Shown here: one piece after another, positions 6,926 through 48,548 of the stretch
Layout: every line of letters starts with the position of its first letter
How positions within the stretch are numbered: position 1 is the first letter of the stretch
Origin: Candidatus Latescibacterota bacterium
GTDB lineage: Bacteria; Latescibacterota; CBDEFO01
Direction: 5' to 3'
Length of the DNA stretch: 64,000 nt
Assembly: GCA_965248755.1 (NCBI GenBank)
Contig: OZ252149.1
Coordinates: forward strand, 3,392,001 to 3,456,000
The notes under the pieces: model-generated
What the model saw: the letters and a program-made list of their open reading frames with translations, nothing else
The model's database searches: none
Told to the model about the DNA's origin: nothing
Translations under genes and position numbers: made by a program

Positions 6926-7034
6926 CTTTTTCCTTAAGGAGTTTTTCGACCACCTCGTGGCTTGCCCCCGATTGAATCTATCGAGGGCTTGCTATCTCCC
7001 GAGCCAAGTGGACACGCCACCTTTTCGGGGGTCG

Positions 7035-7850
7035 TTATCTGTTGGAAAAGAAAAGGTATATAAGCCCCCCGACCACTCCAGAGGCGATTATGGGTTCCAA
7101 TATCTTCCCCAGGTTCTTTCCGGACAGTTGGGATTTTGCAAAATTGTAATCTTCCACCTCAACTTTTGAAAGGTGCTTGACAGGAAAGGTATCAAACGAC
7201 TCAAAGCCGCCCGGTCCCTGCCAAAGTACCCGACCATCGGCCGGATCTGTCGCCTGCAGTGAAAACCTAACTCTGACCAACCTCTTTGCCATCTTCTCTC
7301 CGATCAGCCCCTTTCGGTTCTTCCCCAAGTAATCTGTCCTGATCTCCTCAACTCTGTAGGAAAGACGCATGGGGGAACCGGGGCTGACAAAAATGGTATT
7401 GTCGGGCGGCGGCGTGAGACTATCGTGTTGTGCGCTGTTTTCCTGGTCGTCAATCACGACGCGGAATCCTCTTTTAATCAGCTCCTCAAGAAGGGCGTTT
7501 TCTATAATCCAGTTTGCTTCATGCTGGCTTCTGGATGCTAACAGAATCGTCCTCTTCAGGTTCTCTGTCGAGTAAGGAGTCAGGGATTGACCTGGATCGA
7601 AGATTGAGGGTGAACCATCTGCTATCAAGCTATCTATCACATCTGAGACAGCCCTGGCAACAGTCAATCTTATTACGTCTAAGTTTGTGTCAAAGTCCGG
7701 GTGTAGGGATGCACCCTCTTTTCCCTCCAGGGGTTCTTCCATACTTTTGGGCGAGACCTTTTGTGCGCCCGCGGGATCGGCTTTTTCATCTCCCCACAAC
7801 GGAGCGTCCCAGATAAGAAGGGCCGTCAATAATAGCAGTGATTCTTTCAA
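7035..7850 (-). CDS. hypothetical exported protein with C-terminal membrane anchor
   Basis: Signal peptide; C-terminal 'LEPIIASGVVGGLIYLFFSNR'. Confidence 0.65.
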   Translation of the reverse strand: MKESLLLLTALLIWDAPLWGDEKADPAGAQKVSPKSMEEPLEGKEGASLHPDFDTNLDVIRLTVARAVSDVIDSLIADGSPSIFDPGQSLTPYSTENLKRTILLASRSQHEANWIIENALLEELIKRGFRVVIDDQENSAQHDSLTPPPDNTIFVSPGSPMRLSYRVEEIRTDYLGKNRKGLIGEKMAKRLVRVRFSLQATDPADGRVLWQGPGGFESFDTFPVKHLSKVEVEDYNFAKSQLSGKNLGKILEPIIASGVVGGLIYLFFSNR

Positions 7851-7911
7851 TTTTATCCTCTATATACCTTGTGAATAGTGGACAGGTAACAGGAGGGAAG
7901 CGGTACCCTGC

Positions 7912-8772
7912 CTAACGTCTACTGACTTGGAGCTTCTCAAGGATCAGCTTGGCTTTTTTGACCCATTCGCTGTTGGGGAACTTTTCGATCATCTTGCTAA
8001 ACTCCTCAATGGCCTTGTCCTTATGTTCGAGCCTAAGATAACAATATCCTATCATAAGTTGAGCATCGTCGTCCTTTTCGGTGTTTTGATACTTGAAGAC
8101 ATTCTGGAAGGATACCAGGGCCTGTGTGTAATCTCCCAGTGCGTAGTAGGATTCCCCGATCCAGTACTGTGCGTTGTCGGCTAAGTTGCTCAACGGAGCA
8201 AGGACCAATATATCTTTGAACTTTTCGATAGCCCGTTCGTATTTCTTATCCTTCCGGTCTTGGAGCGCCGCATCGTAGGAGGCCTTCACGTCGTATCCTC
8301 CGGACCTCACAGTGCTTGGAGGAGCCCCTGTTGCTATGGCTTGTTGCATCTGTTTTTCCAGTTCTTTTATACGGTCCTCCAGCTGGACGATTCTCAGATC
8401 AAGCTTCGTTGTCCTTTCGTCCTCTCTGGCAGTAGGGGCGTCTTTTCCTCGCTCCAGAGCATCCACTCGAGCCGTCAGACCCTCTACCTGTATTTTCATA
8501 TAGGAGTTAATGTCGTCCTCTAAGGCCTCAACTTCCCTTTTAAGCTGATCGTTGGATGTCTCCAAGCTGCTCACAGCCTTCTTACTAGCTGCCCCGCATC
8601 CTGAGAGTAAGAGGAAAGCCAGTAGACAGGGAAAACCGGTAGACAGTAGAGAGCAGCCCCCGATAGATTCAATCGGGGGAGACAGGGCAGCCCTTCCACT
8701 CCTGTATGCTGTATATTCTTTGCTGTCTACTTTTCTTCTGCGTAGCCTCTTCATCTTTTCCTCCCTTAACAT
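7912..8772 (-). CDS. tol-pal system YbgF/CpoB-like TPR lipoprotein
   Basis: Lipobox LSGC, coiled coil, 'LADNAQYWIGESYY' TPR; N-terminus contains repeat-derived sequence. Confidence 0.8.
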   Translation of the reverse strand: MLREEKMKRLRRRKVDSKEYTAYRSGRAALSPPIESIGGCSLLSTGFPCLLAFLLLSGCGAASKKAVSSLETSNDQLKREVEALEDDINSYMKIQVEGLTARVDALERGKDAPTAREDERTTKLDLRIVQLEDRIKELEKQMQQAIATGAPPSTVRSGGYDVKASYDAALQDRKDKKYERAIEKFKDILVLAPLSNLADNAQYWIGESYYALGDYTQALVSFQNVFKYQNTEKDDDAQLMIGYCYLRLEHKDKAIEEFSKMIEKFPNSEWVKKAKLILEKLQVSRR

Positions 8773-8809
8773 ACAGAATCAAGACCATCTGAATTTTACG
8801 GTTAAGTTT

Positions 8810-9871
8810 CTAAAAGGCTGAGATTGGGACAATTACGGATATAACGTGGATATGTTGTCTTTCCAGATCTCTTTTCTCTGTGACGTAGGTATATCCGACA
8901 GTGTCGGACGCGCTGTTTCGCAGAAGGTAGCCGTTGTTTCCGCCTTTTAGTTTGAATCCTATCCCGAAGGAGTAGACGTTATGGCCAGATGGTCTTCTTC
9001 GGAAATAACCTCCCCTTATCGCAAATCCCAAGGGAAGATTCCTTTCAAACCCTGTGTGTATCTCTCTGGCTGAAGGGTTGTGAGATTTATCAGATTCGTT
9101 AAGATTCCTCAGGTCTAGAGAGAAGATGGTCTTGGAGTCGAGGTAGTAAGAGATACCTCCGTTGATGGCTTCGTCTCCTATCCTTTCAAGATCGAGTCTT
9201 GGGGAACCCATATCATCTGAGAAGTTGACAAACGATATTCCAACATTCAACTTTGGGCTCGGTTTTAGCAGTACTCCAAATGCGAAACTATCCCCTTTGA
9301 CCTTTTCTCCTGGACCGCCCGGCTCGTAATATATAGTGGCCGATACTCCCAGCGATACTGCAGGAGCTAATTGCAAAGACAGTGCTCCCAACTGAGAGTA
9401 CAACTGGAAAGTGGGCCTTGAGGAGAAGAGCCTCTCTTCGCGCCATAGATCCAAGGGTTCTTCTCCATTGAGGATTCCTATATTTAGAGATGCCGTGCGG
9501 TATATGACTCCTCGTATAGATAGACTTAAAGCGTAGATCCACTCTGATAGCGTTAAATTGTCGTCTCTTTCCCATCTGCGGTCAAAGTCCCCGAGATCGT
9601 GCCACGCAACCGGTGGAGAGATAGGGTTTAAAAAGACCTCAAATCTCCTTCGAGTTGCTTTGCCCATGGGTCCCAAAGCCGCAGGGTTCCAGTCCAAAGA
9701 TGGGAGATCGTCCACAATTGAAAGGTACGCCCCGCCTAAGCCTAAGGCTCGCGCCTTGGTATTGTTGAAACTTATATATTTTCTCTCGGCCCTAACTGGG
9801 GTAGCCGATAGTAGCTTCACTGCAACCAGGTTCAAAAGAAAGAACATGACCACTCTGTGGTGTATTTTCAT
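8810..9871 (-). CDS. outer membrane beta-barrel protein (PorV/FadL-like N-terminal motif)
   Basis: Signal peptide; 'ARALGLGGAY....DD....WNPAAL' motif; amphipathic strands; C-terminal Phe. Confidence 0.6.
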   Translation of the reverse strand: MKIHHRVVMFFLLNLVAVKLLSATPVRAERKYISFNNTKARALGLGGAYLSIVDDLPSLDWNPAALGPMGKATRRRFEVFLNPISPPVAWHDLGDFDRRWERDDNLTLSEWIYALSLSIRGVIYRTASLNIGILNGEEPLDLWREERLFSSRPTFQLYSQLGALSLQLAPAVSLGVSATIYYEPGGPGEKVKGDSFAFGVLLKPSPKLNVGISFVNFSDDMGSPRLDLERIGDEAINGGISYYLDSKTIFSLDLRNLNESDKSHNPSAREIHTGFERNLPLGFAIRGGYFRRRPSGHNVYSFGIGFKLKGGNNGYLLRNSASDTVGYTYVTEKRDLERQHIHVISVIVPISAF

Positions 9872-10039
9872 CTTCCCCTTTCTTTTGGTCCCCTCCTTTC
9901 AAACTAACCTGGCCGCCTACGGCATATGTGCCTATGGCATATGTTCAAAGTACAGGATCTCCCAAAAAGTATTGAAGAACTTTTTGGGGAAGGGTTTATG
10001 GTATTTAAGCTAATAAAATAAGTCTGCTAAGTCAAGTAA

Positions 10040-11607: not shown

Positions 11608-11760
11608 ACGGTGAGATTGGTTCGGGGCTCCACCTCCCCGCAATCACTGAAAGCCCAGACAAGCAAGGTCATTGCGACCCCGCCCCGATTGAATCTATCG
11701 GGGGTCAGTCAGTGGCAGGGTAGCAATCTCGCTGACAGTGGGAATCTGATCATCCTTTTA

Positions 11761-13391: not shown

Positions 13392-13661
13392 GGCCTCATT
13401 TCTTAGTACCAGCGGAACACCATAAGAGTATAACGGCGATAAATGTTTGTGTTACTGGCCCGATTAGTTCGTAATGAGGCTTAGTCTTCAATTCTCGGAT
13501 TTCCGCAAATGTCTTTGAACTTGCGCGAAACTTGTGTATCTTTATTCATGGCAGTGTCTCTTCAGTTTTAGGCATTGTTTTTGCAATTATACAGCATGAC
13601 TGTTATATAATGTCCATACCGCTCCCCTTGACAGAGCGACAAATATTTCGCAAATTGGGGT

Positions 13662-13991
13662 TTGAGAAGGGAGGTCAAGGTGTCGAGCCCCGAAGTGAAA
13701 GATGGTAAGCGCTGGACGGCGACCCGTAAGGGAGAGATTGTGTTGGCTCTTTTGAGAGGAGCAGATCTATCTGAGGTGTGTCGTAAGAATGGAATTAGCC
13801 AGTCGCAGGCGTATGCTTGGCGTGATAGTTTCTTAGAAGGGGGCCAGGAGAGTCTGAAGTCTCGGCGTGGTCGCAAGGATCCGAAGGAGCGAGAGGTTAG
13901 CCGGTTGGAGCGCAAGGTAGGGCAGTTGACGCTCCAGTTGGAGATACTCGAAGAGGTAGCCCGTCTAAAAAAAACGAAGCGGTTGCCTTGA
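13662..13991 (+). CDS. IS3-family OrfA (HTH)
   Basis: HTH 'LSEVCRKNGISQSQAYAWRD' plus C-terminal leucine zipper; true start may be GTG 13680. Confidence 0.9.
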   Translation: MRREVKVSSPEVKDGKRWTATRKGEIVLALLRGADLSEVCRKNGISQSQAYAWRDSFLEGGQESLKSRRGRKDPKEREVSRLERKVGQLTLQLEILEEVARLKKTKRLP

Positions 13992-14851
13992 GTGGGCGGT
14001 TTTTGGGTCGAGGCTATTCCCGCAAGGTGGTAGCTTTGGCTTTGGGTTTGCATCGTTCGACTCTGTATAGGTTTAGGGATAGAGGTGTCAGTTCTTCTGT
14101 TAAAGAGCCTGTGATAGATGAGGAGCTTGCTTTTCGTATTCGAGGGATACTGGACCAAGAAGAGGCATTTGGTCACAGGCGGGTTTGGGCGCATCTTCGT
14201 TTCAAGGAAGGGGAATGTGTCAACGTTAAGAAGGTTCATAGGATAATGAAGCTTAAGGGGTGGCAGTGTAAGCTGTGGAATCGTCCCGGGAGAAAGGGGC
14301 CACAGGTTGCCCAGAAGCGTTCTGTGGTGGATAGTCCCGACAGTTTGTGGTCGAGTGACTTGACAAAGATTTACTGTGGAAAAGATGGTTGGTGTCCTCT
14401 TATTGCGGTGGTGGACAACGGAAGCCGGGAGGTTCCTGGGTATCGTTTTAGTCGAAAAGGGAGGGCACTGGAGGCCACAGATGCCCTGGATCGGGCCGTG
14501 ATCTCTCGATACACTTCCAAGGAGGCTGTCCCCCAGGGTCTCACTTTGCGCTCTGACAATGGTTCCATCTTTTTGGCTCGGGCCTATTTGGCCAGTACCG
14601 AATATTGGGGAATTCGTCAGGAATACATACCAAGTGGTAAACCCGATTGGAACGGTGTTGTAGAGCGTTTTTTCAGGACCCTCAAGCAAGAGTGTGTTTG
14701 GCTTCACAAGTTTGAATCCTTTGAACAGGCTGAGAAGATCATATCTCAGTGGATCGATAATTACAACAAGAACAGGCTTCATTCATCCCTGGGATATAAG
14801 ACCCCAAAAGAGTGGAGAAAACAATTTTATCTACTACCCCAGGTTGCTTAA
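13988..14851 (+). CDS. IS3-family OrfB DDE transposase
   Basis: WSSDLT, RSDNGS, NGVVERFFRTLKQE, YNKNRLHSSLGY; lies in -1 frame relative to orfA. Confidence 0.93.
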   Translation: MSGRFLGRGYSRKVVALALGLHRSTLYRFRDRGVSSSVKEPVIDEELAFRIRGILDQEEAFGHRRVWAHLRFKEGECVNVKKVHRIMKLKGWQCKLWNRPGRKGPQVAQKRSVVDSPDSLWSSDLTKIYCGKDGWCPLIAVVDNGSREVPGYRFSRKGRALEATDALDRAVISRYTSKEAVPQGLTLRSDNGSIFLARAYLASTEYWGIRQEYIPSGKPDWNGVVERFFRTLKQECVWLHKFESFEQAEKIISQWIDNYNKNRLHSSLGYKTPKEWRKQFYLLPQVA

Positions 14852-15231
14852 TTGGTGTCGCTTTCCTGGGAAGCAGTACATGTCTTAATTAATGCACTTT
14901 TTTTTATGAATTATTCTGGCCAAAGGGTGATAACAGTAGATAAATCGAGAATTGAATCTAACCAACGGTGGTTAGCCTAAATTAACATGAGGAGGAACGA
15001 ACGATGAAGTTCAGCTCGCAATAACTGTTTGACAGCTTAACTGCGGGCACTGATATCCTGATTACTGACGGGGTGAAAAAGGCAGGAAGGACAGATAGGG
15101 ACCCCCAAAGATCGCAGGTGACGCTCGCTATCCCAGATTGATTCTATCGGGGAAGAGCTTCTTGGGGAGAAATATGAGGGTCATTTCCGTATCACAACAG
15201 TTGTATTATTAAAGAGAAAGTGAGGAGCAGC

Positions 15232-17862: not shown

Positions 17863-18414
17863 CTTTTTCTCTTCAAAAATAGTAGATCGGACGAATTATT
17901 CACCCATCCTGATCTATCGGTTGGAGGAAAATGTGGACACGCTGACAAAGGGCTCAGGCATAGACATCACATAGTGAAATCAGACTAAGCCCGGGTTACT
18001 GTCAGGGTCATCCAGTCTTATTCCTGGAGGTACACGAGTACTGAATCGAAAACGGTGAAGGATCGGGGCCCCATGGAAACCAGCGTGTTGCTGGTAGATC
18101 TTTCGGTGGAGGGGCGCGCAGTTCCCTCGCCCGAAAGGCTGGTTAATCCAGCCTGCATATCATCTATTACTATATTTTGGTGCCACTTCTTTGCATGGTA
18201 TCTGTAGCTAAGTATCAGATCTCGATAGTCTGGAGGTGACTGTCGAGATCCAAGACAGAAGACAGCACACAGGAAGTGGCAACCTCCAGATAGATCCCCA
18301 TTCAATTACAGCCGCTAGGTTTTATCAAGATACTCAGTTAGAGATCGAATGGGAAGTGTGGCAGCTTCTTTCGAGCGCGCATCAAAGCATTTAGAGTGCG
18401 CAGCATTGTCTAAC

Positions 18415-19866
18415 TTAAAGTCCTCTTGTATACGCGCCGTATTGGACGATGATTTCTACGTCTTCTACCGTCAATGCTGCTATGAAGTCGGTGGGCTGCT
18501 CTTTCAATACTATCTCCAGCAGGTTCCGACCTTTCTGAGGGCGCACTGCTTCCAGATCAAATGCCAGCCATTGGCCCGCGTACGCATCGGGCCGTTTGGG
18601 GAAGGTGCGCTTGCAGAGTTCCTCTGCCAGGGACTCCCCGTTCAAAAAAATCTCGAGTTGGTGCACCGCCATCAGGTTGTTTATGTAGATTTTGAGCTGA
18701 ACACTCTGCACGCGGTCGTTCTGGATATCGTCGGCGATGGAAAAGGGAAGCTGATAACGTTTCTCCGGATCAACTGAAGGGATTTCAAGCGGCAGGGTGG
18801 CCTCGTAATCGTGCTTGTCGGCCGACTCGCAGCGCCGGCGGAGGAAGTAGTGCTTGTCAGCTTCTTTTACCAGCTCGGGGTCTCCAAGTTCCGTGAGGGT
18901 GCTGCGCTCCACATCCCCCAGGGGCCACTCCAAAAACCAGGTGTAGATCCCGTCCACGTCCAGCTCCCAGAAGTTGGCGGCAGCGGCCCGCATCATAGCC
19001 GGGGAAGCGTGCACAGTCGAAGAGCCTTTGCGGTTCGGGTCAGAGTAGTAGGGCCCCAGCATGGCGTAAACTGAAATCTCGTTTTCGTGGGCCGCCTGCA
19101 CTACCCAGTCGATGGGCATGTTGGCGTCCAGGTAGAAGTCCACATATAGCATAGGAACCACAAAGTCCACCAGCCCCTCGCTCAGCCAGGTGTGAACGTC
19201 CAACCCCGACTTCAGATTCAGCTCCTCTGTGGGATATACACGCGCACCCACCAGGCCGGGCTCACCTGACCGGTTATGGACCATCTCAGCCACTCTGCGC
19301 ACGAAGTCGGTCATCACTGACGTGTGTTCCGATGCTTCCTCGGGTTTGAAGCAGAAGGCACTTCCACCCGGGGCTGCCGCAAAGTCCAGCTCCACACCCT
19401 CTACCGGATACTGCGTGGCGAGCTCCTCAAGTACGGCGAACTGGTGATCGCGCACCTCCGGGTGAACGTACCCCTTCCCCTCTGTCGGCACTGAGTACCC
19501 AGAGGGCATTCCTGGCAGCCCGCCCATACGCAGGCTGGAGAAAAAGTCCATGCCTTTCTCGTGAGCCCGGTCGATCAGCACCTTCAGTGGATCTAGGCCG
19601 AGGTCTATCAGGCTCTGCATATTGTGCCATACGCGCCAGTAAGCCGACAGATCAAAACCTTCCTTGCCTTCACCGAACCTGAGACCCACTTTGGAAGGGT
19701 AGAAAAGGCCATCATCCCGCGATACCCCGTAGATGAAGGTGTCGACGGCTGTGCCGGCAACCTCGTCAATGGGTGCCCAGGCATCTTCTGACCGGAACGG
19801 GGGGTCGTAAATGAACAGATAGTAGTGGCGAGCATCATTGAAGTAGATCGTCCTGCGGCGTCTCAT
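18415..19866 (-). CDS. glycoside-hydrolase-like TIM-barrel protein (GHL10-like), paralog A
   Basis: 'YFNDA', 'AHEKGMDFFSSLRM', 'PEVRD', 'GVELDF', 'WLSEGLVD', 'DGIY'; C-terminal beta domain. Confidence 0.7.
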   Translation of the reverse strand: MRRRRTIYFNDARHYYLFIYDPPFRSEDAWAPIDEVAGTAVDTFIYGVSRDDGLFYPSKVGLRFGEGKEGFDLSAYWRVWHNMQSLIDLGLDPLKVLIDRAHEKGMDFFSSLRMGGLPGMPSGYSVPTEGKGYVHPEVRDHQFAVLEELATQYPVEGVELDFAAAPGGSAFCFKPEEASEHTSVMTDFVRRVAEMVHNRSGEPGLVGARVYPTEELNLKSGLDVHTWLSEGLVDFVVPMLYVDFYLDANMPIDWVVQAAHENEISVYAMLGPYYSDPNRKGSSTVHASPAMMRAAAANFWELDVDGIYTWFLEWPLGDVERSTLTELGDPELVKEADKHYFLRRRCESADKHDYEATLPLEIPSVDPEKRYQLPFSIADDIQNDRVQSVQLKIYINNLMAVHQLEIFLNGESLAEELCKRTFPKRPDAYAGQWLAFDLEAVRPQKGRNLLEIVLKEQPTDFIAALTVEDVEIIVQYGAYTRGL

Positions 19867-20034
19867 GGCAAGTAGTCCTTTCTCTTAGAATTATGAATAG
19901 GGTCTCGTTTCTATTCTCATCTAAACGCAAATATACCTTTATACAAACAATTTAGCAAGAAAAATTCTTGCAGACTAACTACGTCTTAAAAGGGGACAAT
20001 TTACAACGATTCTGGACTCATGAATTTTGCTGAC

Positions 20035-20170
20035 GCATATTGGTTCCATAGCAGTGTCACGCAGCCTGGTGATATGAAAGCGCAACTGGGACAACGCTGA
20101 AACTTATGCCTACAAACACGGTTTCGGCAGACTTAATCACAATGAAAAGATCATATTTTTTTGTATGACA
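20035..20170 (+). pseudogene. remnant paralog of the 22748-24373 gene
   Basis: Translates LVI*KRNWDNAETYAYKHGFG versus LLIWKYNWDGAATYAYKHAFG in the intact gene. Confidence 0.75.
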
Positions 20171-20231
20171 TTTTAATTCCCTTTCGTTATCCAATTAATT
20201 TCTGTGCCATTTAATTATGCTAACTCCTAAT

Positions 20232-20560
20232 CATACCGCTCCCCCTTGGTAGAGCGACAAATATTTCGATAATTGGGGTTTGAGAAAGGAGGTCAAATTG
20301 TCAAGCCCCGAGGTAAAAGATAGTAAGCGCTGGTTTGGGACCCGTAAGGCAGCGGTGGTGTTGGCTCTTTTGAAAGGAGCGGATGTATCAGAGGTGTGTC
20401 GGAAGAATGGAATTAGCCAGTCGCAGGTGTATGCTTGGGTGATAGTTTCTTAGAAGGAGGCCAGGAGAGTCTGAAGTCTCGGCGTGGTTGCAAGGACCCG
20501 AAGGAGCGGGAGGTTGGTCGGTTGGAGCGCAGGGTAGGGCAATTGACGCTCCAGTTCGAG
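20232..20560 (+). mobile_element. diverged, truncated copy of the IS3 element (left end + partial orfA)
   Basis: Starts CATACCGCTCCCCC..AGAGCGACAAATATTTCG; aligns to orfA with substitutions and indels; lacks orfB and right IR. Confidence 0.9.
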
Positions 20561-20945
20561 GTACGCGAGTACTGATCGAAAACGGTGAAGGATCAGGGCC
20601 CCAAGGGAATTAGCGCGTTGCTGGTGCACCTTTTGGTGGGGGGCGCGCGACGTGCCCTCGACGGAAGGGATGGTTAACGCAGCGTGCATGTCATCTATTG
20701 GTGGATTTCGGTGCCACTTCTTTGCATGGTATCTGTAGCTAAGTATTAGATCAAGATTGTCTGGAGGTGACTATCGAGATCCAAGACGGAAGATAGCACA
20801 CAGAAAGTGGCAACCTCCAGATAGATCCCTATTCAATTACTTCCGCCAGGTTTTGTCAAGATACTCAGTTAGAGATCAAATGGGAAGTGTGGCAGCTTCT
20901 TTTGAGCGCGCATCAAAGCATTTAGAGAGCGCAGCGCTGTCTAAC

Positions 20946-22388
20946 TTAAAGTCCTCTTGTATACGCGCCGTATTGGACGATGATTTCTACGTTCTCTACC
21001 GTCAATGGCGCTATGAAGTCGGAGGGCTGCTCTTTTAAAACTATCTCCAGCAGGTTCCCGCCTTTCTGAGGGCGCACTCCTTCCAGGTCAAATGCCAGCC
21101 ACTGGCCCGCGTAACGGTCGGGCAGTTTGGGGAAGGTGCGCTTGCAGAGTTCCTCTGCCAGGGACTCCCCGTTCAAAAAGATCTCGAGTAGGTGCACCGC
21201 CATCAGGTTGGTTATGTAGATTTTGAGCTGAACACTCTGTACCCGGTCGTTCTGGATATCGTCGGCGATGGAAAAGGGAAGCTGATAACGTTTGGCCGGA
21301 TCAGCCGAAGGGATTTCAAGCGGCAGGGGGGCCGCGTAATCCTGCTCGCCAGCCGACTCGCAACGCCGGCGTAGGAAGTAGTGTTTGTCAGCTTCTTTTA
21401 CCAGCTCGGGGTCTCCAAGTTCCGTGAGGGTGCTGCGCTCCACATCCCCCAGGGGCCACCCCATAAACCAGGTGTAGAGCCCGTCCACGTCCAGCTCCCA
21501 GAAGTTGGCCGCCGCAGCACGCATCATGGCCGGGGGAGCGTACACAGTCTCAGTGCCTATGCGGTAGTAGTAGGGCTGCAGCATGGCGTAAACTGATATC
21601 TCGTTTTCATGGGCCGCCTGCACCACCCAGTCGATGGGCATGTTGGCGTCGAGGTAGTTGGACACATATAACATAGGAACCACAAAGTCTACCAGCCCCT
21701 CGCTAAGCCAGGTGTGAACGTCCAGGCCTACTTTCAGATTCAACTCCTCTGTGGGATATACACGCGCACCCACCAGGCCGGGGTTGCCTGACCGGTTATG
21801 GACCATCTCAGCCACTCGGCGCACAAAGTCGGTCATCACTGATGTGTGTTCCGATGCTTCCTCGGGTCTGAAGCAGAAGGAATCCCCGCCCGGAGCTCCC
21901 GCAAAGTCCAGCTCCACGCCCTCTACCGGATACTGCGTGGCGAGCTCCTCCAGTACGGCGAACTGGTGGTCGCGCACCTCCGGGTGCACGTACCCCTTCC
22001 CCTCTGTCGGCACTGAGTACCCAGAGGGCATGCCTGGCTGCTCGCCCATACGGAGGCTGGAGAAAAAGTCCATGCCTTTCTCGTGAGCCCGGTCGATCAG
22101 CACCTTCAGTGGATCCAGGCCGAGGTCTATCAGGCTCTGCATATTATGCCATACGCGCCAGTAGGCGGCCAGATCAAAACCATCCAGGCCTTCACCGAAC
22201 CTGAGACCCACTTTGGAAGGGTAGAAAAGGCCATCACCCCGTGCTACCCCGTAGATGAAGGTGTCGACGGCTGTGCCGGCAACCTCGTCAATGGGTACCC
22301 AGGCATCTTCTAACCGGAACGGCGGGTCGTAAATGAACAGATAGCAATGCCGTGCATCATTAAAGTAGATCGTCCTGCGGCGTCTCAT
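20946..22388 (-). CDS. glycoside-hydrolase-like TIM-barrel protein (GHL10-like), paralog B
   Basis: Highly similar to 18415-19866 along its whole length. Confidence 0.7.
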   Translation of the reverse strand: MRRRRTIYFNDARHCYLFIYDPPFRLEDAWVPIDEVAGTAVDTFIYGVARGDGLFYPSKVGLRFGEGLDGFDLAAYWRVWHNMQSLIDLGLDPLKVLIDRAHEKGMDFFSSLRMGEQPGMPSGYSVPTEGKGYVHPEVRDHQFAVLEELATQYPVEGVELDFAGAPGGDSFCFRPEEASEHTSVMTDFVRRVAEMVHNRSGNPGLVGARVYPTEELNLKVGLDVHTWLSEGLVDFVVPMLYVSNYLDANMPIDWVVQAAHENEISVYAMLQPYYYRIGTETVYAPPAMMRAAAANFWELDVDGLYTWFMGWPLGDVERSTLTELGDPELVKEADKHYFLRRRCESAGEQDYAAPLPLEIPSADPAKRYQLPFSIADDIQNDRVQSVQLKIYITNLMAVHLLEIFLNGESLAEELCKRTFPKLPDRYAGQWLAFDLEGVRPQKGGNLLEIVLKEQPSDFIAPLTVENVEIIVQYGAYTRGL

Positions 22389-22747
22389 GGCAAGTAGTCC
22401 CTTCTCTATAGAATTATTAATTGGGTCTCCTTTTCATTCTCATCTCAACGCAAATATACCTTTATCCAAACAACTTAGCAAGAACAATTCTGTGCACACT
22501 AACTACGTGTTCAAAGTGGGCAATTTACAACGATTCTGGACTGATGAATCTTTGTTGACATCTAACAGTTTTCTTTGTATCTTCCCACTTAATATTCAGT
22601 ATCATAAAGCCATCTTCAGTCCACGAATGAGGAGACGTCGCAAAATTACCCGATCTTTGTATAGTTAATGTCTTGTCAATCTGAGAAAGATGAGGTCTCA
22701 AAATAAGACATATAATTTTCTATACTGTTCTGACACTGTTAGTCGCT

Positions 22748-24373: not shown

Positions 24374-24640
24374 AGATCCTCAGTTTCGGGCTCATTACCC
24401 TAAATTGGGAAGTTCGAGCAGTTTGACGTTGACCCCCGATAGATTCAATCGGGCGTGACCCCACAGCGGAGATTAGGCACAAAGACACTAATTTTAATAT
24501 CTTTGTGCCTTGGTGGCTGAAGACAGGATCAGTGGGCCGAAGCGATCGGCAGTGAATCTCGCTATTCACAATTCTGCTGAGATTCACCGTACTCGGTTTC
24601 TCGGAATAACTAACAGTTTGTCTAATCTGCGCTATTCCTA

Positions 24641-25789
24641 CTAGCCATGTAAATCCAACCGCGACCAATGAATGTCCATGGACGTTTCAGTTCCCGCGTA
24701 GTAGACAACCAACACATCGCCATCAGGCAGGGCCTCTGCATAGGGTAGGCCAAAGGTCCAGAGTGACATATCCGCCAGAAGTGTAGCAGTATCATCGTCA
24801 GCCGAATCCTGCGCTGAGGCTGCACTGTGTGAGTAAATTACCACTTCTGGCGCAGGATCAAAGGGTGCCTCGATAGAGGAGGCCAAACGCGCTCGAATCG
24901 AACGGGTACCGAAGCGGTCCACCCACGCAAGGACGACGCGTCCGTCCTGCATTATGGCAGGATGTGCTGCCTGGTCGGTAAAGCCTAGATCCTCAAGGGG
25001 CGACCAGGTCTGGCCGCCATCCGGGCTGATCCGGCGGTGGATATTGAGGTAAGTATTCGTCTGGCTGTCGTAGGTCCACAGAAAGGTAGCGATACGGCCG
25101 TCAGGGGCTACGCCAGCACGCTGGTCCCAGTAGAAGATGCGGCCCGTCGGATCCTGGCTGGCTGTAACGGGCTCACCCCAGGTCTGACCCAGATCAGTTG
25201 AATGGAACAAGACAACTCGTTGATACCATCTGGAACTATCTTCGTAGGGCTTGTTCGACTCAACACTTAACACTAAAGTACCGTCGGGAAGTACCATGAT
25301 CGGGTTCGTTAAACTCGGCGGGCCAATATCAGCGGGCATCGGCACCACTCGGCACGGAGTCCACGTTTCTCCGAAATCGTGTGAATCGGCTAGCAGAAGC
25401 TCTATCGGCAGACAACCCTCGGTCTCGGGGTTGAACAGCGGTTTGCCAGGGTAAGTCTCCCGATCGATCCACAAGTAAGCCGCGATTAGGTGGCCCCGGA
25501 TAGGTTCAATCGGGGGTGAAAGCTCGGTAAGGTAACAGGACCTGAGTGACCCCTGTAAGCCTCCAATTTGCGTCCCTTCGAAAGGACGTTTCGGTTCACT
25601 CCAGGTCCGACCGCTGTCCAGAGAAGAGTAAAATTCAACTGTTCCATCGGGAGAGTCCTTGTTCGAGCCAGCGCGGCAGGTGGCCATAAGCGTGCCATTG
25701 GAAAGTGCAATTACGCTGGGGAAAGTCAGGACGGCTCGTTCAGTCCCCGCTACGCCACGGGACAAAATACCATTCTCAATAATTCTCAT
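24641..25789 (-). CDS. sialidase/BNR-repeat family protein
   Basis: Asp-boxes SLDSGRTW, SHDFGETW, STDLGQTW, SPDGGQTW. Confidence 0.85.
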   Translation of the reverse strand: MRIIENGILSRGVAGTERAVLTFPSVIALSNGTLMATCRAGSNKDSPDGTVEFYSSLDSGRTWSEPKRPFEGTQIGGLQGSLRSCYLTELSPPIEPIRGHLIAAYLWIDRETYPGKPLFNPETEGCLPIELLLADSHDFGETWTPCRVVPMPADIGPPSLTNPIMVLPDGTLVLSVESNKPYEDSSRWYQRVVLFHSTDLGQTWGEPVTASQDPTGRIFYWDQRAGVAPDGRIATFLWTYDSQTNTYLNIHRRISPDGGQTWSPLEDLGFTDQAAHPAIMQDGRVVLAWVDRFGTRSIRARLASSIEAPFDPAPEVVIYSHSAASAQDSADDDTATLLADMSLWTFGLPYAEALPDGDVLVVYYAGTETSMDIHWSRLDLHG

Positions 25790-27101: not shown

Positions 27102-27768
27102 GACAATTCTCCTCTCTTCGGTCTTAGCATTCAGCACACGACGCGCTAAAGTGAAGCTTGGGGAAACTTTGAACATCGGAGCTGTATTTAAGCCGTGAAC
27201 GCCACCGTTGCACTATCTGACTAATATCTTCAGCGAGCTTTAGCAAGAGTGGCAAGTATGAGAACACCACAGTTTCTTTGCGACTGCTTAATTATAAAAA
27301 AATGACCGCGTAAAATCAAGTACTTACCAAGCCATTTTCAGAAGGAGTTTTACAGATACGTGTAAAAAGTGGGATGTTAGAAATCTCGGTTGCAAATGCG
27401 CCGCAAGTTCAACGTCTGAAATCGTGAGAAGCTTCACAGAGTTTGGAGATGCGCCGGCCGGGAAAGTTGAGAAGCTTGTCTCGCCTCAGATTGTGCGAAT
27501 GTGGGCCACAAGGGCAAAAGCGAAGTTGTTAACGGTTAGGACTGAGATTTCCATTGACCTCCACTATCTTCTTTTATATGTTCTCATCTACTGCGTCACC
27601 GATTACTAAGTATGGGGTCAAAATGAAGCGACTCGCAGGTGAACTGGAAGAAGATCGATAAAATAAGCCTCTTACAAGAATTCCATCTCTTGTATCATTA
27701 GTAGAAATTCTCAACTTTATCCAAAGAGTATTGAAGAACTTTTCTTGGGGTACTGAAAGGAGAACGAA

Positions 27769-28632: not shown

Positions 28633-28782
28633 AGATCTTGATCTCCGTGGCGTGAGCACGTAGCCTCCGATTGAATCTATCAAGGGTAGGCATGGCTACC
28701 ACCCTCCTCCCTGTCTACTGCTTGCTGTCTATTTGAATATATGGACCGACCCCATTTTCTTCTGCCTCTAACCGGTGGGTCT

Positions 28783-29157: not shown

Positions 29158-29351
29158 CGTCTCCTTTCTGTGGGGCTTCTTCCGATCCCCCATACATTCT
29201 ATCGGGGACTGACCTAATCTTTCATCTAAAGTGCTCATCTTGTACTTGCCTTGCAATCTCGTTGTAGATCACAAGTCGTCTGGGTGCTTGTCGAACATTG
29301 TATCCCTTCCCGTATTTTCACTTGCGCCCTTCTTCAGCGAACATCACGACA

Positions 29352-30188: not shown

Positions 30189-30497
30189 CCTCCACTGGGC
30201 CCCAAAAAGTATCGAAGAACTTTTTGGAGGGGGGGAAAGTAAGAAGTTCTACATTTATAAAAATTATAGCAGAATACCGACACTCGTGAGTGGCGGATGA
30301 ATGCCATCGGGGAAGGAGGAGGGCATCTCCCAGGGGCGGGGTTTGAAGCCCTGCCCGCGGAGTGCCTAAGTTGAGTTGCGCCGAAGGCGGTGACTCAACG
30401 TGGCTTCACTGAAACAGTTAGGTACACCGTTGGATCGTCCCCGATTGATTCTATCGGGGACTGGCGGAGCGCGTTGATACCGATCCTCATCCCTTCC

Positions 30498-31726
30498 TTA
30501 CACTACCCATAAGTCGTGGGTAATCACCTCCTCCGAAGTCAAGATATCCGCTCCATCCTCTGTGATTAGTACTACATCCTCAAGGCCGAACTTCTCTTCA
30601 GCCTTCCAGAACGGGTAGACGCCGTTCAATGTGATAAAGGGTTCAACGGACAACACCATGTTCTCCTGTAACACGGCCGTGCTGGTCGCACTGAGACCCG
30701 GCTGTTCATGCAGGTCCAGTCCGACGCTGTGGCCAATCGCCGACCAGCCAGACTCCAGACACCACTCTGAGAAGGCGCCAAAGCCCGCTGCATCGTTTAC
30801 CGCGAACGCCGCCTGAAGCGGCACATTTAATGGCACACCGGGTTTCATCACTTCAATCGCGGCGAAGAGCCCTCCCTGGCCAGATCGTAGAAGCGCCTCT
30901 CTAGGAGCCGCGGTTCTCCGACGGCAGACATGCGCTTGAAGTCGCACCAGTAGCCCTCGTATGCACAGCCGCCGTCAAACTGCACCAGGTCTCCTGACTG
31001 GATTACATAATCCGTAGGCATTGCCTTCGGCCCACATGGCTCGTGGCCCGGCGTACAAGGCATTGAAACGCTGCTCGCAGGCGCTCTCAGCACACATGAC
31101 TGATGTCATGATATCTATCACTTGCTTCTCTATCATCCCGGGTATGAGGGCTCCAAATCCGGCCTTGACGCCCTTGGCGGTGATATCTGCGGCTCTGCGC
31201 AGGCGCGCGATCTCAGCGGGAGATTTGATGCTGCGCAGCTCCCAGATAGAATCACTTGCATCCACAATCTTGGCATGCTGTAGGACCTGAAGGATGGAAG
31301 TGAAATGGGGTATGCGCCATGTGCACGTGAATATCTGCGCTAAGCTCCATGCCAATGACACCACGGTCAACCCGTCTCTCTTTCAATACGTCCAAGACCA
31401 GGGATACGGCGTTTGACTTCTCGGACATGTTAAAAGGCCTTTTCCCAGGGCCAGTAGCGTACATCCTCGATCCAGCACTGCTTCACCAAGTGATTGAAGC
31501 CGTTGGCGACCAGCAGGATCGGATCACCTGCAGCCTGCAAGATGGTCAGAAAGTAGAAATGATGTGCATCCCAGGCGCCGTCCCGCAGGCCGGCAAAGTA
31601 GCGCAAGTTCTGCCTCTGGGTCAGGAAAAGCGCATCAATGCCATGCTGCCTGAGGGTTTGTTGGGTACGGGCATACCGCGCTGTGTACTCCTCGCGTGGA
31701 AAGTCAGGAAACAGGAGCTTTTTCAT
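30498..31726 (-). pseudogene. Xaa-Pro aminopeptidase (M24) pseudogene with multiple frameshifts
   Basis: Creatinase_N start (FPREEY..R), 'RSIKSPAEI', 'GDLVQFD...YEGYWCD', 'GHSVGLDLHE', 'EP', 'LED' are spread over several frames. Confidence 0.88.
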
Positions 31727-31842
31727 TTCAATGCGGCCTCCGGGAAACATCGGTGCTTGATCTCTGGCTACTTCACGGGGTCTTATCGCCGACCCCCAAT
31801 TGAATCTATTGGGGGTTCAATCGGGGGCCAATGCGACCCGGT

Positions 31843-32724: not shown

Positions 32725-32832
32725 TTCTCTCAGGGTCCTCTCCTTTCACATAAGAAGAAAAAGTGAATTAAATCGCTTGTCCCCCCCGATTAAATCGGGG
32801 GTTGAATCTATCGGGGAATTGACTTTTGCGGT

Positions 32833-35799: not shown

Positions 35800-36695
35800 T
35801 ATTATGACTCCCGTGCAATTTCATCAGCGGTAATTGATACTTATAGCTGAAGTCCAATTGCAGAATCCGATTTCAATTTAAATATAGTTCTTTGCCCTCT
35901 AAAAGGCAATCACATTATCAGACTCGACGGCTATCCAGTTCTCTTCAGAAACATCGTTAGAGCAGAAGTGAAGTGACGCATCGAGACCAGGCAGGACACC
36001 TGATTATCCCAATTGTCTTGATTTCAATACAATTACCAACAGTACCTTGACAAGCTCTGAATGGCGTTCAACGCAACTCAACGCAACCCCAGACTGAGAA
36101 CTTAATATAGGATCATAATAATCTGGACAGATTACCAGATTGCTTCGCTTCCCCGACCCCCAATTGAATCTATTGGGGCTTCAATCGGGGACTCGGAATG
36201 ACGCTTGATCTGTATCTTTCAACTACTTGGCTTGGATCCTGGGTCATTGCTAGAGGCGTTGGCCCCGAAGCAATTTCACATATCTTCCGACTTAACATAT
36301 CCGACAACTCTTGTCAAGCTACTCAAATGATCCTGTATCTTCCCTGATTCCTATTGACATCGTCTATCTTCTTTTGTATTTTCTCTCACATTAGATCTGC
36401 GCACGGGATCCTATTTGCCATAAGTAATGACAACGGACGAGGGTCTTTGTGGAGAACACATCGCTGTGGATGAGCAATCGTAATTTTAGACGTCATTTCT
36501 GGAGACCAAACTTTAGGAGCCATGGGTACCCGTGAGCTGGAAGGTGGAGATTCAACTTTAGCTATCAGAAGCAGAGCCAGATCGACGGCGTGTGGTAGGA
36601 GTGGGGAGAAGGGCCCAAGCGCCCAGGCCGAGTAAGATCATGCCCCTTTACTACGAACGCGGATACGAAGTGAACTACGTTACCGTCCCGACGAA

Positions 36696-40807: not shown

Positions 40808-41094
40808 TCTTAATCACCTCCTTCGGGTTGATCCCCGAAAGAATCCATCGGGGACTGATACCGCGATTCGGGGTTGATTGCGGGGAGAAGGATAGTCAGA
40901 GTCATCCTGATCTCCTCTGTGCAGAGGACATCTATCTTCTCCCCGTGATCATTTGTTTCCAAATTCTGTATTCTTTTGATCTTTTCGAAATCTGAGCATA
41001 CACCACCTTTTGTCATTTTCTCTATCTCGTAAAGTTCTTGTTCAGGTTCGGTTTGAATCCGTCTGTTATAATTTCCATCTGTGATGATGTTAAC

Positions 41095-43113: not shown

Positions 43114-43132
43114 GGACTACAGATCGTGATTG

Positions 43133-43164: not shown

Positions 43165-43207
43165 CTCTGTCGTTCGCATAGTCACCGGCCTCGTGTGACT
43201 CTTTGTC

Positions 43208-43236: not shown

Positions 43237-43271
43237 AGACAGGAAATTAGATAGGCAAAAGGACGTCCAGA

Positions 43272-43487: not shown

Positions 43488-43503
43488 GGATAAGGTTAAG
43501 TTT

Positions 43504-44991: not shown

Positions 44992-45215
44992 TTTAATAGT
45001 ACCAAATTAGGCTTAATCCACCCATGGTAAATAGAGTCAGTGTAGTAGCTATCTACTATCTCCTATCTACGTGTTTATGCCGTCTACTTCTCTAATCCTC
45101 GTCTGCCGATTTAATAACCTTGACTTTAGAAATCTTTATTATTATCTTTTGACCTTTCATACTGATAGTATAATACATCCTAACTGAAGAATCAATAAAA
45201 AATGGGAAGTTATTT

Positions 45216-46481
45216 CATACCGCTCCCCTTGACAGAGCGACAAATATTTCGCAAATTGGGGTTTGAGAAGGGAGGTCAAGGTGTCGAGCCCCGAAGTGAA
45301 AGATGGTAAGCGCTGGACGGCGACCCGTAAGGGAGAGATTGTGTTGGCTCTTTTGAGAGGAGCAGATCTATCTGAGGTGTGTCGTAAGAATGGAATTAGC
45401 CAGTCGCAGGCGTATGCTTGGCGTGATAGTTTCTTAGAAGGGGGCCAGGAGAGTCTGAAGTCTCGGCGTGGTCGCAAGGATCCGAAGGAGCGAGAGGTTA
45501 GCCGGTTGGAGCGCAAGGTAGGGCAGTTGACGCTCCAGTTGGAGATACTCGAAGAGGTAGCCCGTCTAAAAAAAACGAAGCGGTTGCCTTGAGTGGGCGG
45601 TTTTTGGGTCGAGGCTATTCCCGCAAGGTGGTAGCTTTGGCTTTGGGTTTGCATCGTTCGACTCTGTATAGGTTTAGGGATAGAGGTGTCAGTTCTTCTG
45701 TTAAAGAGCCTGTGATAGATGAGGAGCTTGCTTTTCGTATTCGAGGGATACTGGACCAAGAAGAGGCATTTGGTCACAGGCGGGTTTGGGCGCATCTTCG
45801 TTTCAAGGAAGGGGAATGTGTCAACGTTAAGAAGGTTCATAGGATAATGAAGCTTAAGGGGTGGCAGTGTAAGCTGTGGAATCGTCCCGGGAGAAAGGGG
45901 CCACAGGTTGCCCAGAAGCGTTCTGTGGTGGATAGTCCCGACAGTTTGTGGTCGAGTGACTTGACAAAGATTTACTGTGGAAAAGATGGTTGGTGTCCTC
46001 TTATTGCGGTGGTGGACAACGGAAGCCGGGAGGTTCCTGGGTATCGTTTTAGTCGAAAAGGGAGGGCACTGGAGGCCACAGATGCCCTGGATCGGGCCGT
46101 GATCTCTCGATACACTTCCAAGGAGGCTGTCCCCCAGGGTCTCACTTTGCGCTCTGACAATGGTTCCATCTTTTTGGCTCGGGCCTATTTGGCCAGTACC
46201 GAATATTGGGGAATTCGTCAGGAATACATACCAAGTGGTAAACCCGATTGGAACGGTGTTGTAGAGCGTTTTTTCAGGACCCTCAAGCAAGAGTGTGTTT
46301 GGCTTCACAAGTTTGAATCCTTTGAACAGGCTGAGAAGATCATATCTCAGTGGATCGATAATTACAACAAGAACAGGCTTCATTCATCCCTGGGATATAA
46401 GACCCCAAAAGAGTGGAGAAAACAATTTTATCTACTACCCCAGGTTGCTTAATTGGTGTCGCTTTCCTGGGAAGCAGTACA
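45216..46481 (+). mobile_element. IS3-family insertion sequence, copy 2, TSD ATTT (orfA 45263-45592, orfB 45589-46452)
   Basis: Same proteins and ends as copy 1; ATTT at 45212-45215 and 46482-46485. Confidence 0.95.
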
Positions 46482-46548
46482 ATTTGCTGAAATTGGCTTA
46501 TCACTTTTTCTATGAGAAGGCTTATCTCGGAAACACGGAGGCATTAAA

Positions 46549-47457
46549 ATGGCGGAAAAGTTTGTAAGATTCACGGTTGAATCTGGTCGAGAAGTGTGGG
46601 GGAAAGTAGTAGACGAATCGGATATTTCGAATGTGAAGGCAGTAAGATTAGATGGCGAGGGACTCGAGGGACCTATTCGAAGTTACGAACGTCTATCCGA
46701 TCAATTACATACGGCAACCCAAAGAGAAGAGATTACAATCACAGAAGGCAGATTCCTTCCTCCCGTAAACCGTCCGCCAGATTTTCTGCCGAATATCTAC
46801 GCCGTGGGACTCAATTACTACGAACATGGAGCGGCGACCGGGCAGCTGGAAAAGGGCCAAAGGCCCGGAGCACCTATTCTGTTCCCTAAATGGACTACGT
46901 CGGTCACCTCCCACACTTCTCCGATCATTTTGCCTGCCTCAGCGCCAAACTGTGTGGATTATGAGGTAGAATTAGCCTTAATCATAGGCAAGGAGGGTAA
47001 GAACATCCCACCGGAAGCGGCGTTAGAATATGTATTAGGATTTACTATTGCAAACGATGTGAGTGCCCGTGACGTGCAGGGAATGTATCCCCAAATCCAA
47101 CCAAATAGTCAATGGGGAAAAGCAAAATCGTTTGACACATTCTGTCCCTTGGGACCATTCTTAGTTATGGACATAGACCCTCAAGACCAGGATATAATGT
47201 TGTATGTCGATGGAGACAGGAAACAATTGGGTAACACAGGCGATATGATGTACTCGTTAGCAGAGCTCATCGCCTATATTTCTCTGGATGCCAGGTTGTT
47301 GCCCGGAACGGTACTATTGACCGGGACGCCCAAAGGTACACAGGTAGAAGAGCATCATGCTGGAAGGGAGCCGCGTTATCTGAAAGCGGGTCAAGAGGTA
47401 GTAGCTCAAATCGGCGAGGTGGGAACCTTGGTAAACTGTGTCCAAGAATCTAAGTAA
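46549..47457 (+). CDS. fumarylacetoacetate hydrolase family protein
   Basis: 'VGLNY..H', 'DYEVEL', 'NDVSARD', 'KSFDTFCPLGP', 'TGTP'. Confidence 0.93.
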   Translation: MAEKFVRFTVESGREVWGKVVDESDISNVKAVRLDGEGLEGPIRSYERLSDQLHTATQREEITITEGRFLPPVNRPPDFLPNIYAVGLNYYEHGAATGQLEKGQRPGAPILFPKWTTSVTSHTSPIILPASAPNCVDYEVELALIIGKEGKNIPPEAALEYVLGFTIANDVSARDVQGMYPQIQPNSQWGKAKSFDTFCPLGPFLVMDIDPQDQDIMLYVDGDRKQLGNTGDMMYSLAELIAYISLDARLLPGTVLLTGTPKGTQVEEHHAGREPRYLKAGQEVVAQIGEVGTLVNCVQESK

Positions 47458-47511
47458 AGCTTCTCCTAACTATTGCTGATCGTTGTGGAATTTCGAACAG
47501 GAGGACTCGAT

Positions 47512-48510
47512 ATGGCGAAAGATAAAATCAGGTGGGGTGTGTTGGGATGTGCCCGCATCGCTCTGAATTCTTTTCTTCCAGCATTAGCAAGTTCCGAAAC
47601 AGGAAGCCTAGCCGCCATCGCCAGCCGTGACAGATCCAAGGCCGAAGCTGAGGGCGAGAAATTCGGGGCGGAGAGGTTCTACGGATGCTACGAGGAGCTT
47701 TTGGACTCTGGTGGCATAGATGCCCTCTATATTCCATTGCCCAACAATATGCACAAAGAATACACCCTCAAGGCTGCGCAAAGGGGAATACACGTCCTTT
47801 GCGAAAAGCCGTTTGCTATGAACCAAAAGGAAGCCCTCGAAATGAAGGAAGCCTGCCGAAAAAATAGGGTCCGACTTATGAACGCCTTTATGTGGCACTT
47901 GGACCCCATGAATCAGCGGGCGCTTGAGATAGTACGTTTGGGAGAGATAGGAAAGATAAAATATATGAACGCTGCCTTTACCTCTAATCTTCCAAGACAG
48001 GACGATATCCGCCTGCAAAGAAAGATGGGAGGGGGGTCGCTTCTGGACGCCGGGGTCTATTGTGTCAACACCTTTCGACGTTTTATGAGGAAGGAACCGG
48101 TCGAAGTGGTGGGCCTATCTGTTACTCCTACGCTCAAAGCAGATGTGGATGAGACATTTAGCGGCCTACTCCGCTTTGATGAAGATGAGATAGCTGCATT
48201 CGTCGCCAGCTTCAGAATGAGCAGCCAGCAGCGATACGAGATAGTAGGCGAAAAGGGGAGAATACGTTCTCCCTGCGGTCCGTGGCACCGTAAAGAACCG
48301 AATAGGATAGAGGTCATAACAGATGACAACGTCAGGGAGGAGAACTTCGAGGAGAACGATCCGTTCAAAAACGAAATCGAGTATTTTACAGGGTGTATTC
48401 AGTCCGATAAGGAGCCTGACCCAGGCGGAGAGGACGGTTACCTTGAAATGAAAGTGCTGGATGCTCTTATGGAGTCTGCTCTGATGGGAAAGAAGGTTGA
48501 GATAAAATGA
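47512..48510 (+). CDS. Gfo/Idh/MocA family oxidoreductase
   Basis: 'WGVLGCARIA', 'YIPLPN..H', 'HVLCEKP', 'GGSLLD.GVY'. Confidence 0.92.
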   Translation: MAKDKIRWGVLGCARIALNSFLPALASSETGSLAAIASRDRSKAEAEGEKFGAERFYGCYEELLDSGGIDALYIPLPNNMHKEYTLKAAQRGIHVLCEKPFAMNQKEALEMKEACRKNRVRLMNAFMWHLDPMNQRALEIVRLGEIGKIKYMNAAFTSNLPRQDDIRLQRKMGGGSLLDAGVYCVNTFRRFMRKEPVEVVGLSVTPTLKADVDETFSGLLRFDEDEIAAFVASFRMSSQQRYEIVGEKGRIRSPCGPWHRKEPNRIEVITDDNVREENFEENDPFKNEIEYFTGCIQSDKEPDPGGEDGYLEMKVLDALMESALMGKKVEIK

Positions 48511-48548
48511 CGTTTACATTGTTGCCCCCGATAGATTCACTCGGGGGT

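Follow-up and report, generated by a model that had tools for sequence, protein, structure and literature searches.

How repeats of less than 30 bases spread in bacterial genomes is, to our knowledge, an open question, and we know of no enzyme for the small dispersed repeats (SDRs) or for elements like them. The question is raised here by a hairpin of 23 bases scattered over 64,000 nucleotides of the genome of Candidatus Latescibacterota bacterium (assembly GCA_965248755.1, contig OZ252149.1, positions 3,392,001 to 3,456,000 of the forward strand), a stretch which we call the window and in which positions are counted unless a genome is named. The unit reads Y-CCCCGAT-TGAATCT-ATCGGGG-R (pattern YCCCCGATTGAWTCTATCGGGGR), forms a stem of 8 base pairs with a loop of 7 bases, and is predicted to fold with -7.2 to -8.0 kcal/mol as DNA and -12.2 to -14.0 kcal/mol as RNA. 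An initial annotation of the window had listed 14 loci of it. At up to three mismatches the pattern matches 13 of them and gives no match in 100 shuffles, and the remaining one is a short-loop variant of 19 bases sitting within a full copy. Across the window Rfam gives no match at gathering score.

Counted over the whole source genome (G000; 4.54 Mb in one contig), the hairpin occupies 539 sites at up to three mismatches, spread along the genome, and merely 33 more at four; it is mostly solitary, with 55 of 530 copies having another within 150 bases. The outer base pair co-varies as the initial annotation had noticed, the combinations over 530 unique sites being TA 234 and CG 164 against CA 33 and TG 32, and the compensatory change of a stem pair from G-C to A-T also stands, with 31 double changes against 5.3 expected. 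Over the same sites the other six stem pairs show no excess of double changes, so that the description of the element as structure-selected rests on two pairs, and in either of them a single change may have been inherited. The proposed division into a C-type with core GAATC and a T-type with core GATTC is loose at the genome level (TA/GAATC 105, CG/GAATC 100, TA/GATTC 27, CG/GATTC 10). The outer pair goes along with variants of the loop and is therefore part of the element.

The hairpin is a mobile element, and of this we are nearly certain. The comparison set G000 beside a genome of the same genus (G001, about 95% identical over the window; 2.8 Mb used out of about 4.6 Mb) and beside paralogous repeats, a pair of sites counting as filled and empty where both flanks align, the net difference is at least 12 bases and the partner site has no copy. 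This gave 62 rows, or 51 after merging those with near-identical flanks, at least two of which still look like duplicates. Counting single orthologous events, G000 has the filled allele 18 times and G001 22 times, so that empty sites exist in both directions between these close relatives. Nested events, left out by the filter, are seen in the window as well: the copy at 31793 is filled in G000 only, its 19 bases being missing also from contigs of three other studies (runs X5, X7 and X8), and at 29186 an extra copy is present in G001 only. The direction of insertion is clear at sites whose empty allele turns out to be a whole gene or an intact copy of an insertion sequence (IS). On the same ground, TCGA-like empty sites are not excision footprints where the empty allele is such an intact gene or IS copy, a rejection which does not reach every intergenic site. 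An assembly artefact was likewise rejected, by the independent assemblies, the depletion of copies in genes and the contigs of other studies. The earlier view of a mobile micro-element spread in trans is supported by the empty sites in both directions, by the contigs that lack the copy at 31793, by the lack of a gene family enriched beside the copies, and by no RAYT or Y1 gene being found in either carrier.

These gains and losses also bear on whether the hairpin might be a transcription-factor operator or an intrinsic terminator, an origin which is suggested by its being palindromic and mostly intergenic but is hardly credible and which we regard as refuted. Whole blocks are gained or lost between genomes that are 95% identical, the hairpin nests in itself, copies lie in frame deep in genes, and the distance to start codons is broad (32 to 338 bases, 10th to 90th percentile) rather than fixed relative to promoters. 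A T-rich tail stands at only 2 of 530 copies, in line with the lack of poly-T tails reported before.

The junctions follow a two-peaked rule. Among the 51 merged pairs the net gains are +15 (three), +18 (two), +19 (twelve), +20 (nine), +21 (three), +24 (one), +26 (three), +27 (fourteen) and +30 to +40 (four), with none of +22, +23 or +25. In the class of +19 and +20, the element takes the place of about four target bases, most often with CG at their centre: read by eye and with one ambiguous core scored as non-CG, a central CG is present in 9 of 12 targets of +19 compared with a background of 5.3%. The targets read were TCGA (four times), ACGA, CCGA, GCGA, TCGG and TCGT for T-type copies and GCGT for a C-type copy. 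In the class of +26 and +27, either a four-base tag is carried along or 3-4 bases are duplicated. The tag, CCTG or CTTG (CYTG), stands 5' of the hairpin on one strand, where the empty site has nothing that corresponds to it, and one loop subtype is far richer in it than the others (26 of 43 strand hits, against 15 of 318 and 11 of 369); the duplications of +27 are most often TCAA, CTTG, TTGA and CCTG. The statement that no target duplication is visible thus has to be given up: in the window CTTG flanks the copy at 6965 and TAG the copy at 28664 on both sides, and over 492 sites of the genome four-base flanks resembling a target duplication number 20 against 3.1 expected and three-base ones 44 against 12.3. 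CGATCG is under-represented, and there is no HIP1 target.

Nor are the flanks unrelated, as had been thought. Of 388 intergenic sites, 200 lie within other families of repeats or within pieces of the element, compared with 31 of 400 random intergenic positions, the hairpin preferring other hairpin and tandem repeats, its own copies included. This half of the intergenic copies, together with seven groups of rows in which one insertion was copied along with IS1380, IS1595 or another repeat, would suit the idea that the hairpin is a passenger only, multiplied through larger repeats, insertion sequences and gene conversion. However, the other 188 of the 388 sites have no such context and clean insertions are also found in single-copy genes and spacers; the empty single-copy sites contradict this as the sole route, and we consider it very unlikely.

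Of 496 unique copies only 34 lie deep within long genes, where 232 would be expected, and those inside genes survive in frame. Out of 50 queries, 18 had a partner, and the 13 well-aligned pairs (above 55% identity) show inserts of 7 residues (five), 9 residues (five), 11 residues (two) and 6 residues (one); the 7-residue inserts indicate that an outcome of +21 exists and is kept by selection. An association with tRNA is not supported: a copy stands within 250 bases of 6 out of 47 tRNA genes, and tRNA fragments hold none.

If the hairpin moves, does it need an enzyme of its own? Its spread might be the work of the host only, where hairpin fragments from ordinary replication or repair withstand exonucleases and are captured by microhomology at forks or breaks, as in template switching or in SPDIR (short-patch double illegitimate recombination), for which capture of single-stranded DNA at microhomologies has been described (bioRxiv 10.1101/2024.07.02.601687). 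In keeping with this, G000 has no candidate gene that is linked to the copies or occurs along with them, T-type targets resemble the ends of the hairpin itself (TC...GA), and changes beside the junctions are somewhat raised: on the left the first base differs in 6 of 18 cases and on the right the second base in 5 of 18, compared with about 1 of 18 further out. Against it, one sequence dominates, with 105 exact 21-base copies in G000 where other strong palindromes reach 26 at most, the ends are constant, and the gain is sharply two-peaked. What is more, the exact 21-mer recurs in unrelated lineages yet the 21-base core was found in none of 39 other genomes of the phylum. At up to one mismatch G001 has 338 strand hits for this core, a load similar to the 329 of G000. 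An exact-match scan of species genomes gave at least 80 rows, and among the matches listed are metagenome-assembled genomes of Latescibacterota and Deltaproteobacteria, one Thermodesulfobacteriota record and one Nanoarchaeia record, the last with a single copy. Among 121 genomes from the phylum to which a further carrier (G041) belongs, 13 match a relaxed pattern, the tagged form occurs at 90 metagenome loci, and viral contigs gave neither an exact copy nor a relative of Ssn, the nuclease discussed below. Dominance, constant ends, two-peaked gain and patchy recurrence together point to a sequence-specific machinery, and host-only spread, a serious rival all the same, appears rather unlikely.

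The search for such machinery covered the families that the initial annotation had singled out, namely RAYT/Y1, GIY-YIG, four-helix-bundle proteins and reverse transcriptases, and none of them is consistently linked to the copies in G000. Among all neighbouring gene families none was convincingly enriched, the best p value being 0.0009 for a family of four paralogs, with many families tested and a background of 17%. The absence of a RAYT or TnpA gene, noted before for the window, extends to the whole of G000, where neither PF01797 nor NF047646 (RAYT/Y1) has a match, and PF01797 has none in G001. The sole four-helix-bundle gene (23S rRNA IVP; G000 2579539-2579850) has an internal TGA.

An HUH transposase of RAYT, IS200/IS605 or IS91 type could still act in trans, with the CYTG tag as guide or cleavage tetranucleotide. 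It would cut and rejoin the single strand, and HUH chemistry is able to join strands; the 27-base form goes in cleanly and has four tag bases 5' of its hairpin, like GTAG REPs (repetitive extragenic palindromes) and the guides of IS200/IS605 (PMC8266576); and CTTG is the target of IS91, which makes no duplication (PMC13181058). Besides the missing Y1 and RAYT genes in both carriers, only one of 22 Y1 loci in four other carriers has a copy, with four mismatches and near the edge of the locus, and the loss of four target bases would stay unexplained. No IS91 transposase was matched in 5 genomes, where the positive control was silent too. Such an enzyme is, in our estimate, unlikely, though still a serious rival.

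Reverse transcriptases were found in two of five genomes, with two matches in G000 and none found in G001, G041 and G043. An RNA-mediated spread by such an enzyme has reportedly been proposed for the cyanobacterial SDRs, and target-primed reverse transcription typically deletes or duplicates a few target bases, with which the losses and duplications seen here would agree. However, besides the carriers in which none was found, the copies show no orientation bias relative to transcription (156 versus 165) and no tail, and this route is highly improbable. As a separate observation, a reverse-transcriptase fragment (L373, G000 3730098-3733640) lies between two inverted repeat copies, each bearing the hairpin as an IS1380-borne insertion.

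A different lead comes from Deltaproteobacterial loci, where the same hairpin is present as TGTCAT-CCCCGAATGYTTCTATCGGGG-ATATG, one arm of a doublet. This parent form, TGTCA/CGTCA-TCCCCGA-N9-TCGGGGA-T, was found in four of five genomes of the Deltaproteobacterial phylum, all five chosen for carrying the hairpin, and in two of them (G062 and G103) it has exactly the loop of the CYTG-tagged subtype, AATGATTCTA. Judged from this likeness, the hairpin probably descends from hairpins of the CGTC type of REP and of the Ssn-related motif (SRM), the order being perhaps from TGTCA-hairpin through CYTG-hairpin to bare hairpin. The parent form is laid out like the CGTC REPs, which have no known transposase (PMC3733652), and like the NTS/SRM hairpins of the Ssn GIY-YIG nucleases. 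Ssn enzymes bind such hairpins as single-stranded DNA and cut a few bases upstream, and the layout NTS-ssnA-NTS has been called IS-like by the authors who described them (PMC11893778).

In genome G092 (contig C101), TGTCA-tagged REPs at 8461-8489 and 8888-8916 flank a small GIY-YIG gene at 8585-8866, which was predicted from the spacing of the two hairpin hits before inspection and whose product is 59% identical to a G001 protein. The G001 gene is intact and lies between two NTS-like hairpins, an SRM-ssn-SRM cassette which G000 does not have at that site; its protein is a candidate Ssn by size, domain and flanks, with a weak NCBIfam match. G000 has 5' stubs of an Ssn-like gene, six in number and each behind an NTS-like hairpin (1272115, 1852133, 2714207, 2979200, 3031450 and 3547897); four of them have longer flanks in common, as though a larger unit had been copied. 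Moreover, in metagenomes the tagged 27-mer often lies in an NTS loop, at its 3' edge, and once these 27 bases are deleted, 16 of 69 unique sites read as an NTS with up to four substitutions; one such NTS adjoins an Ssn-like gene (three near-identical loci). It is this fixed-length NTS test alone that fixes the insert length, since the test by SRM restoration gives 20 of 69 whether 23, 26 or 27 bases are removed, 10 for 28 and 0 for 19. Another hairpin family (CCCCGTTAGATAACTTC...AATGGGG type) stands on both flanks of a different small GIY-YIG gene in genome G045 (L252:1013-1336).

We therefore tentatively lean to the reading, plausible although somewhat short of probable, that the element is a solo derivative of CGTC-REP/Ssn-motif hairpins, freed by an Ssn-type nuclease and captured by host repair. 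A nick of the Ssn type would free the hairpin as single-stranded DNA, with or without four bases on its 5' side, and the stem, being resistant to exonuclease, would protect it. Host replication or repair might then capture it where structured DNA has a nick or gap, much as SPDIR captures single-stranded DNA at microhomologies, and its terminal bases, two on each side (TC...GA), could anneal to a TCGA-like target. Both the single-stranded intermediate and the enzyme are inferred, and the enzyme would have acted in the past, or been encoded by a gene that G000 has lost since. That an Ssn-type nuclease is the mobiliser is put forward with considerable reserve.

Several observations weigh against it. 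SsnA is described as binding and cutting rather than joining, at least in the cited part of PMC11893778. G000 has no intact small GIY-YIG gene (UvrC and stubs only) despite 18 insertions specific to it, and none was found in the incomplete assemblies G041, G042, G043, G105, G062 and G070. Nor are Ssn homologs enriched among carriers, with 4 of 13 hairpin genomes against 24 of 108 without the hairpin, these genomes being incomplete and related, and the hairpin-flanked homolog of G092 is one locus, whose flanks are known only from coordinates and matches to a 29-base pattern. GTCWY precedes just 8 of 974 strand hits in G000, so the solo form does not have the upstream bases that SsnA needs for cutting, and the published SRM pattern, even with its loop relaxed, matches no hairpin copy in G000, in part of G001 or at the Deltaproteobacterial loci. 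Furthermore, C-type targets mostly have no CG core (one of three among the +19 events), and there is no replichore bias, which capture on the lagging strand might give. A bolder extension would make Ssn-type GIY-YIG nucleases the missing mobilisers of CGTC REPs, and the hairpin a minimal parasite of that system, 23-27 bases long and pasted into CG-centred sites or hairpin loops by swapping out or adding exactly four bases, a transposition without transposase; this is speculative and we would give it no great chance.

Where, then, does the element stand among known repeats? The SDRs of Nostoc, as Elhai et al. (2008, Genome Res 18:1484) are said to have described them, measure 21-27 bases, form stem-loops and nest in themselves and in heptamer repeats. 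Set against them by description rather than by sequence, the hairpin shares their reported size (about 20-27 bases) and nesting in themselves and in other short repeats, seen here too, as well as dispersal and empty orthologous sites. It differs in phylum, in the lack of a HIP1 target, in its CGTC-REP parent and in the two-peaked junction rule measured here. The repeats of about 20 bases in Nostoc and relatives are thought mobile, and SDR5 inserts precisely into a short palindrome (PMC4390886, PMC2884548).

With the CGTC REPs, such as dRS3 of Neisseria and RPE-4 and RPE-6 of Rickettsia, the parent form shares a TGTC/CGTC tag, first pairs of A-T and a stem of 8-9 base pairs, and as far as the text of PMC3733652 used here goes, these too have no dedicated transposase and some copies in genes. 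The solo hairpin, in contrast, has no terminal CGTC/TGTC tag (8 of 974 strand hits in G000), which was lost or is now CCTG/CTTG; it has a 7-base loop instead of 4-5 bases and no conserved CCA-like tail, with a stem of 8 base pairs; and it is mostly single rather than a head-head dimer. As for NTS and SRM, the parent form flanks an Ssn homolog at one locus of G092 and the tagged form is often in an NTS loop, but solo copies in G000 do not flank an ssn gene, neither form fits the published SRM pattern, and mobility of single hairpins is not reported in the cited part of PMC11893778. GTAG REPs and the REPINs spread by RAYT (PMC3116915, PMC8266576) are alike in the four-base tag 5' of a short hairpin and in hundreds of mostly intergenic copies. 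However, the present element has no GTAG foot, its flanks being CTTG/CCTG, TTGA, CCGA and others with GTAG only in heptamer repeats; no RAYT gene was found and the Y1 loci of other carriers are not flanked; and what moves is one hairpin by itself, whereas REP singlets count in those sources as dead remnants of doublets. It also departs from miniature inverted-repeat transposable elements, which have terminal inverted repeats like those of an autonomous IS and a target duplication of fixed length; here duplication is seen at a minority of sites, target bases are lost in the main class and no transposase family is enriched beside the copies. The hairpin thus works like the cyanobacterial SDRs and falls outside the definitions of GTAG REPINs, CGTC REPs and SRMs. 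That it is undescribed holds for its sequence, as the exact sequences are unmatched in the literature searched and in 12 of 14 supplements of PMC11893778, and searches by topic gave no description of the family, although the figures of PMC3733652, the other two supplements or subscription papers may hold the parent form. It does not hold for its class, because the same hairpin is the stem-loop of a CGTC-type REP and so has a known parent class.

Within the window the coordinates first given mostly hold. Intergenic C-type copies lie at 6965-6987 (plus strand, CTTG at 6961-6964 and 6988-6991) and 24433-24455 (minus). At 8657-8679 (minus) an exact C-type consensus sits in a stretch rich in TAGACAG/CTGTCTA heptamers at the 5' end of a predicted open reading frame (7912-8772), and the copy listed at 11683-11704 really covers 11682-11704 (plus) with G as first base, within a repeat of the GTCATTGCG...GCAATCTC type. 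T-type copies are found at 15131-15153 (plus, core GATTC), 30438-30460 (plus, exact consensus) and 40832-40854 (minus), the latter two also in G001. The gene of a BNR-repeat protein (24641-25789) has an in-frame copy at 25494-25516 (minus; PPIEPIRG), which G001 has too; a plasmid search for homologs of this protein gave only weak matches, none spanning the insertion. Decayed copies remain at 28664-28686 (plus, C-type, TAG on both sides) and 29186-29208 (plus), where the second copy of G001 adds 19 bases. Two of the listed loci (31787-31827 and 36150-36191) are nested pairs, each with one copy within a reversed older copy: 31793-31815, with the A-T variant stem, in place of four bases of the older copy at 31786-31827, and 36157-36179 within 36150-36191. 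The locus given as 32780-32817 is really a CTTG-tagged copy at 32776-32817 (plus), four bases of which are replaced by the 19-base short-loop variant at 32783-32801, in G001 as well. Finally, a C-type copy at 48525-48547 (minus), followed by a fragment of an older copy, is shared with G001.

A shorter relative of 19 bases, whose stem has the same ends but encloses a loop of 3 bases, has 19 sites in G000 (e.g. 1021775, 1066279, 3541623 and 3424783), a few of the listed ones being longer variants. It often comes with TCG, CGA or TTGA duplications at GTCGAC-like sites. A second small palindromic repeat (CCCAAAAAG...CTTTTTGGGG type) has four copies in the window, at 9961-9994, 27720-27753, 30201-30234 and 49972-50002. 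Other abundant short repeats of G000, a genome with no Y1 transposase, are the GTCATTGCGAG/GAGATTGCTTC type (169 and 205 hits), runs of the TAGACAG heptamer, the GTAGGGGCG type (118) and the TCAGACAGGAATGTCTGA palindrome (26). Three copies of one insertion sequence, identical over 300 compared bases, lie at 13568-14851, 45157-46452 and 61678-62961; it has two overlapping open reading frames (109 and 287 residues), is likely of IS3 type, and has a stretch 66% alike near 20232. Two tandem units about 2.5 kb apart and about 88-91% identical occupy 18018-22552, each with a GHL10-like glycoside hydrolase gene. At 30498-31750 an M24 peptidase/creatinase-like gene is in three pieces (149, 131 and 106 residues), and since contigs of other runs show single-base indels there, it may be a strain-specific pseudogene.

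With this hairpin family come about 50 junctions before and after insertion and a rule for its targets, as well as a parent repeat and one candidate enzyme for which assays are published. The question of how such repeats spread thus becomes testable with oligonucleotides and a protein of 95 residues. At the same time the hairpin inserts loops of 7-9 residues into proteins and breaks genes, a source of variation which annotation pipelines overlook. If the reading favoured here is true, small single-strand DNA nucleases would be candidates for the enzyme that spreads such repeats.

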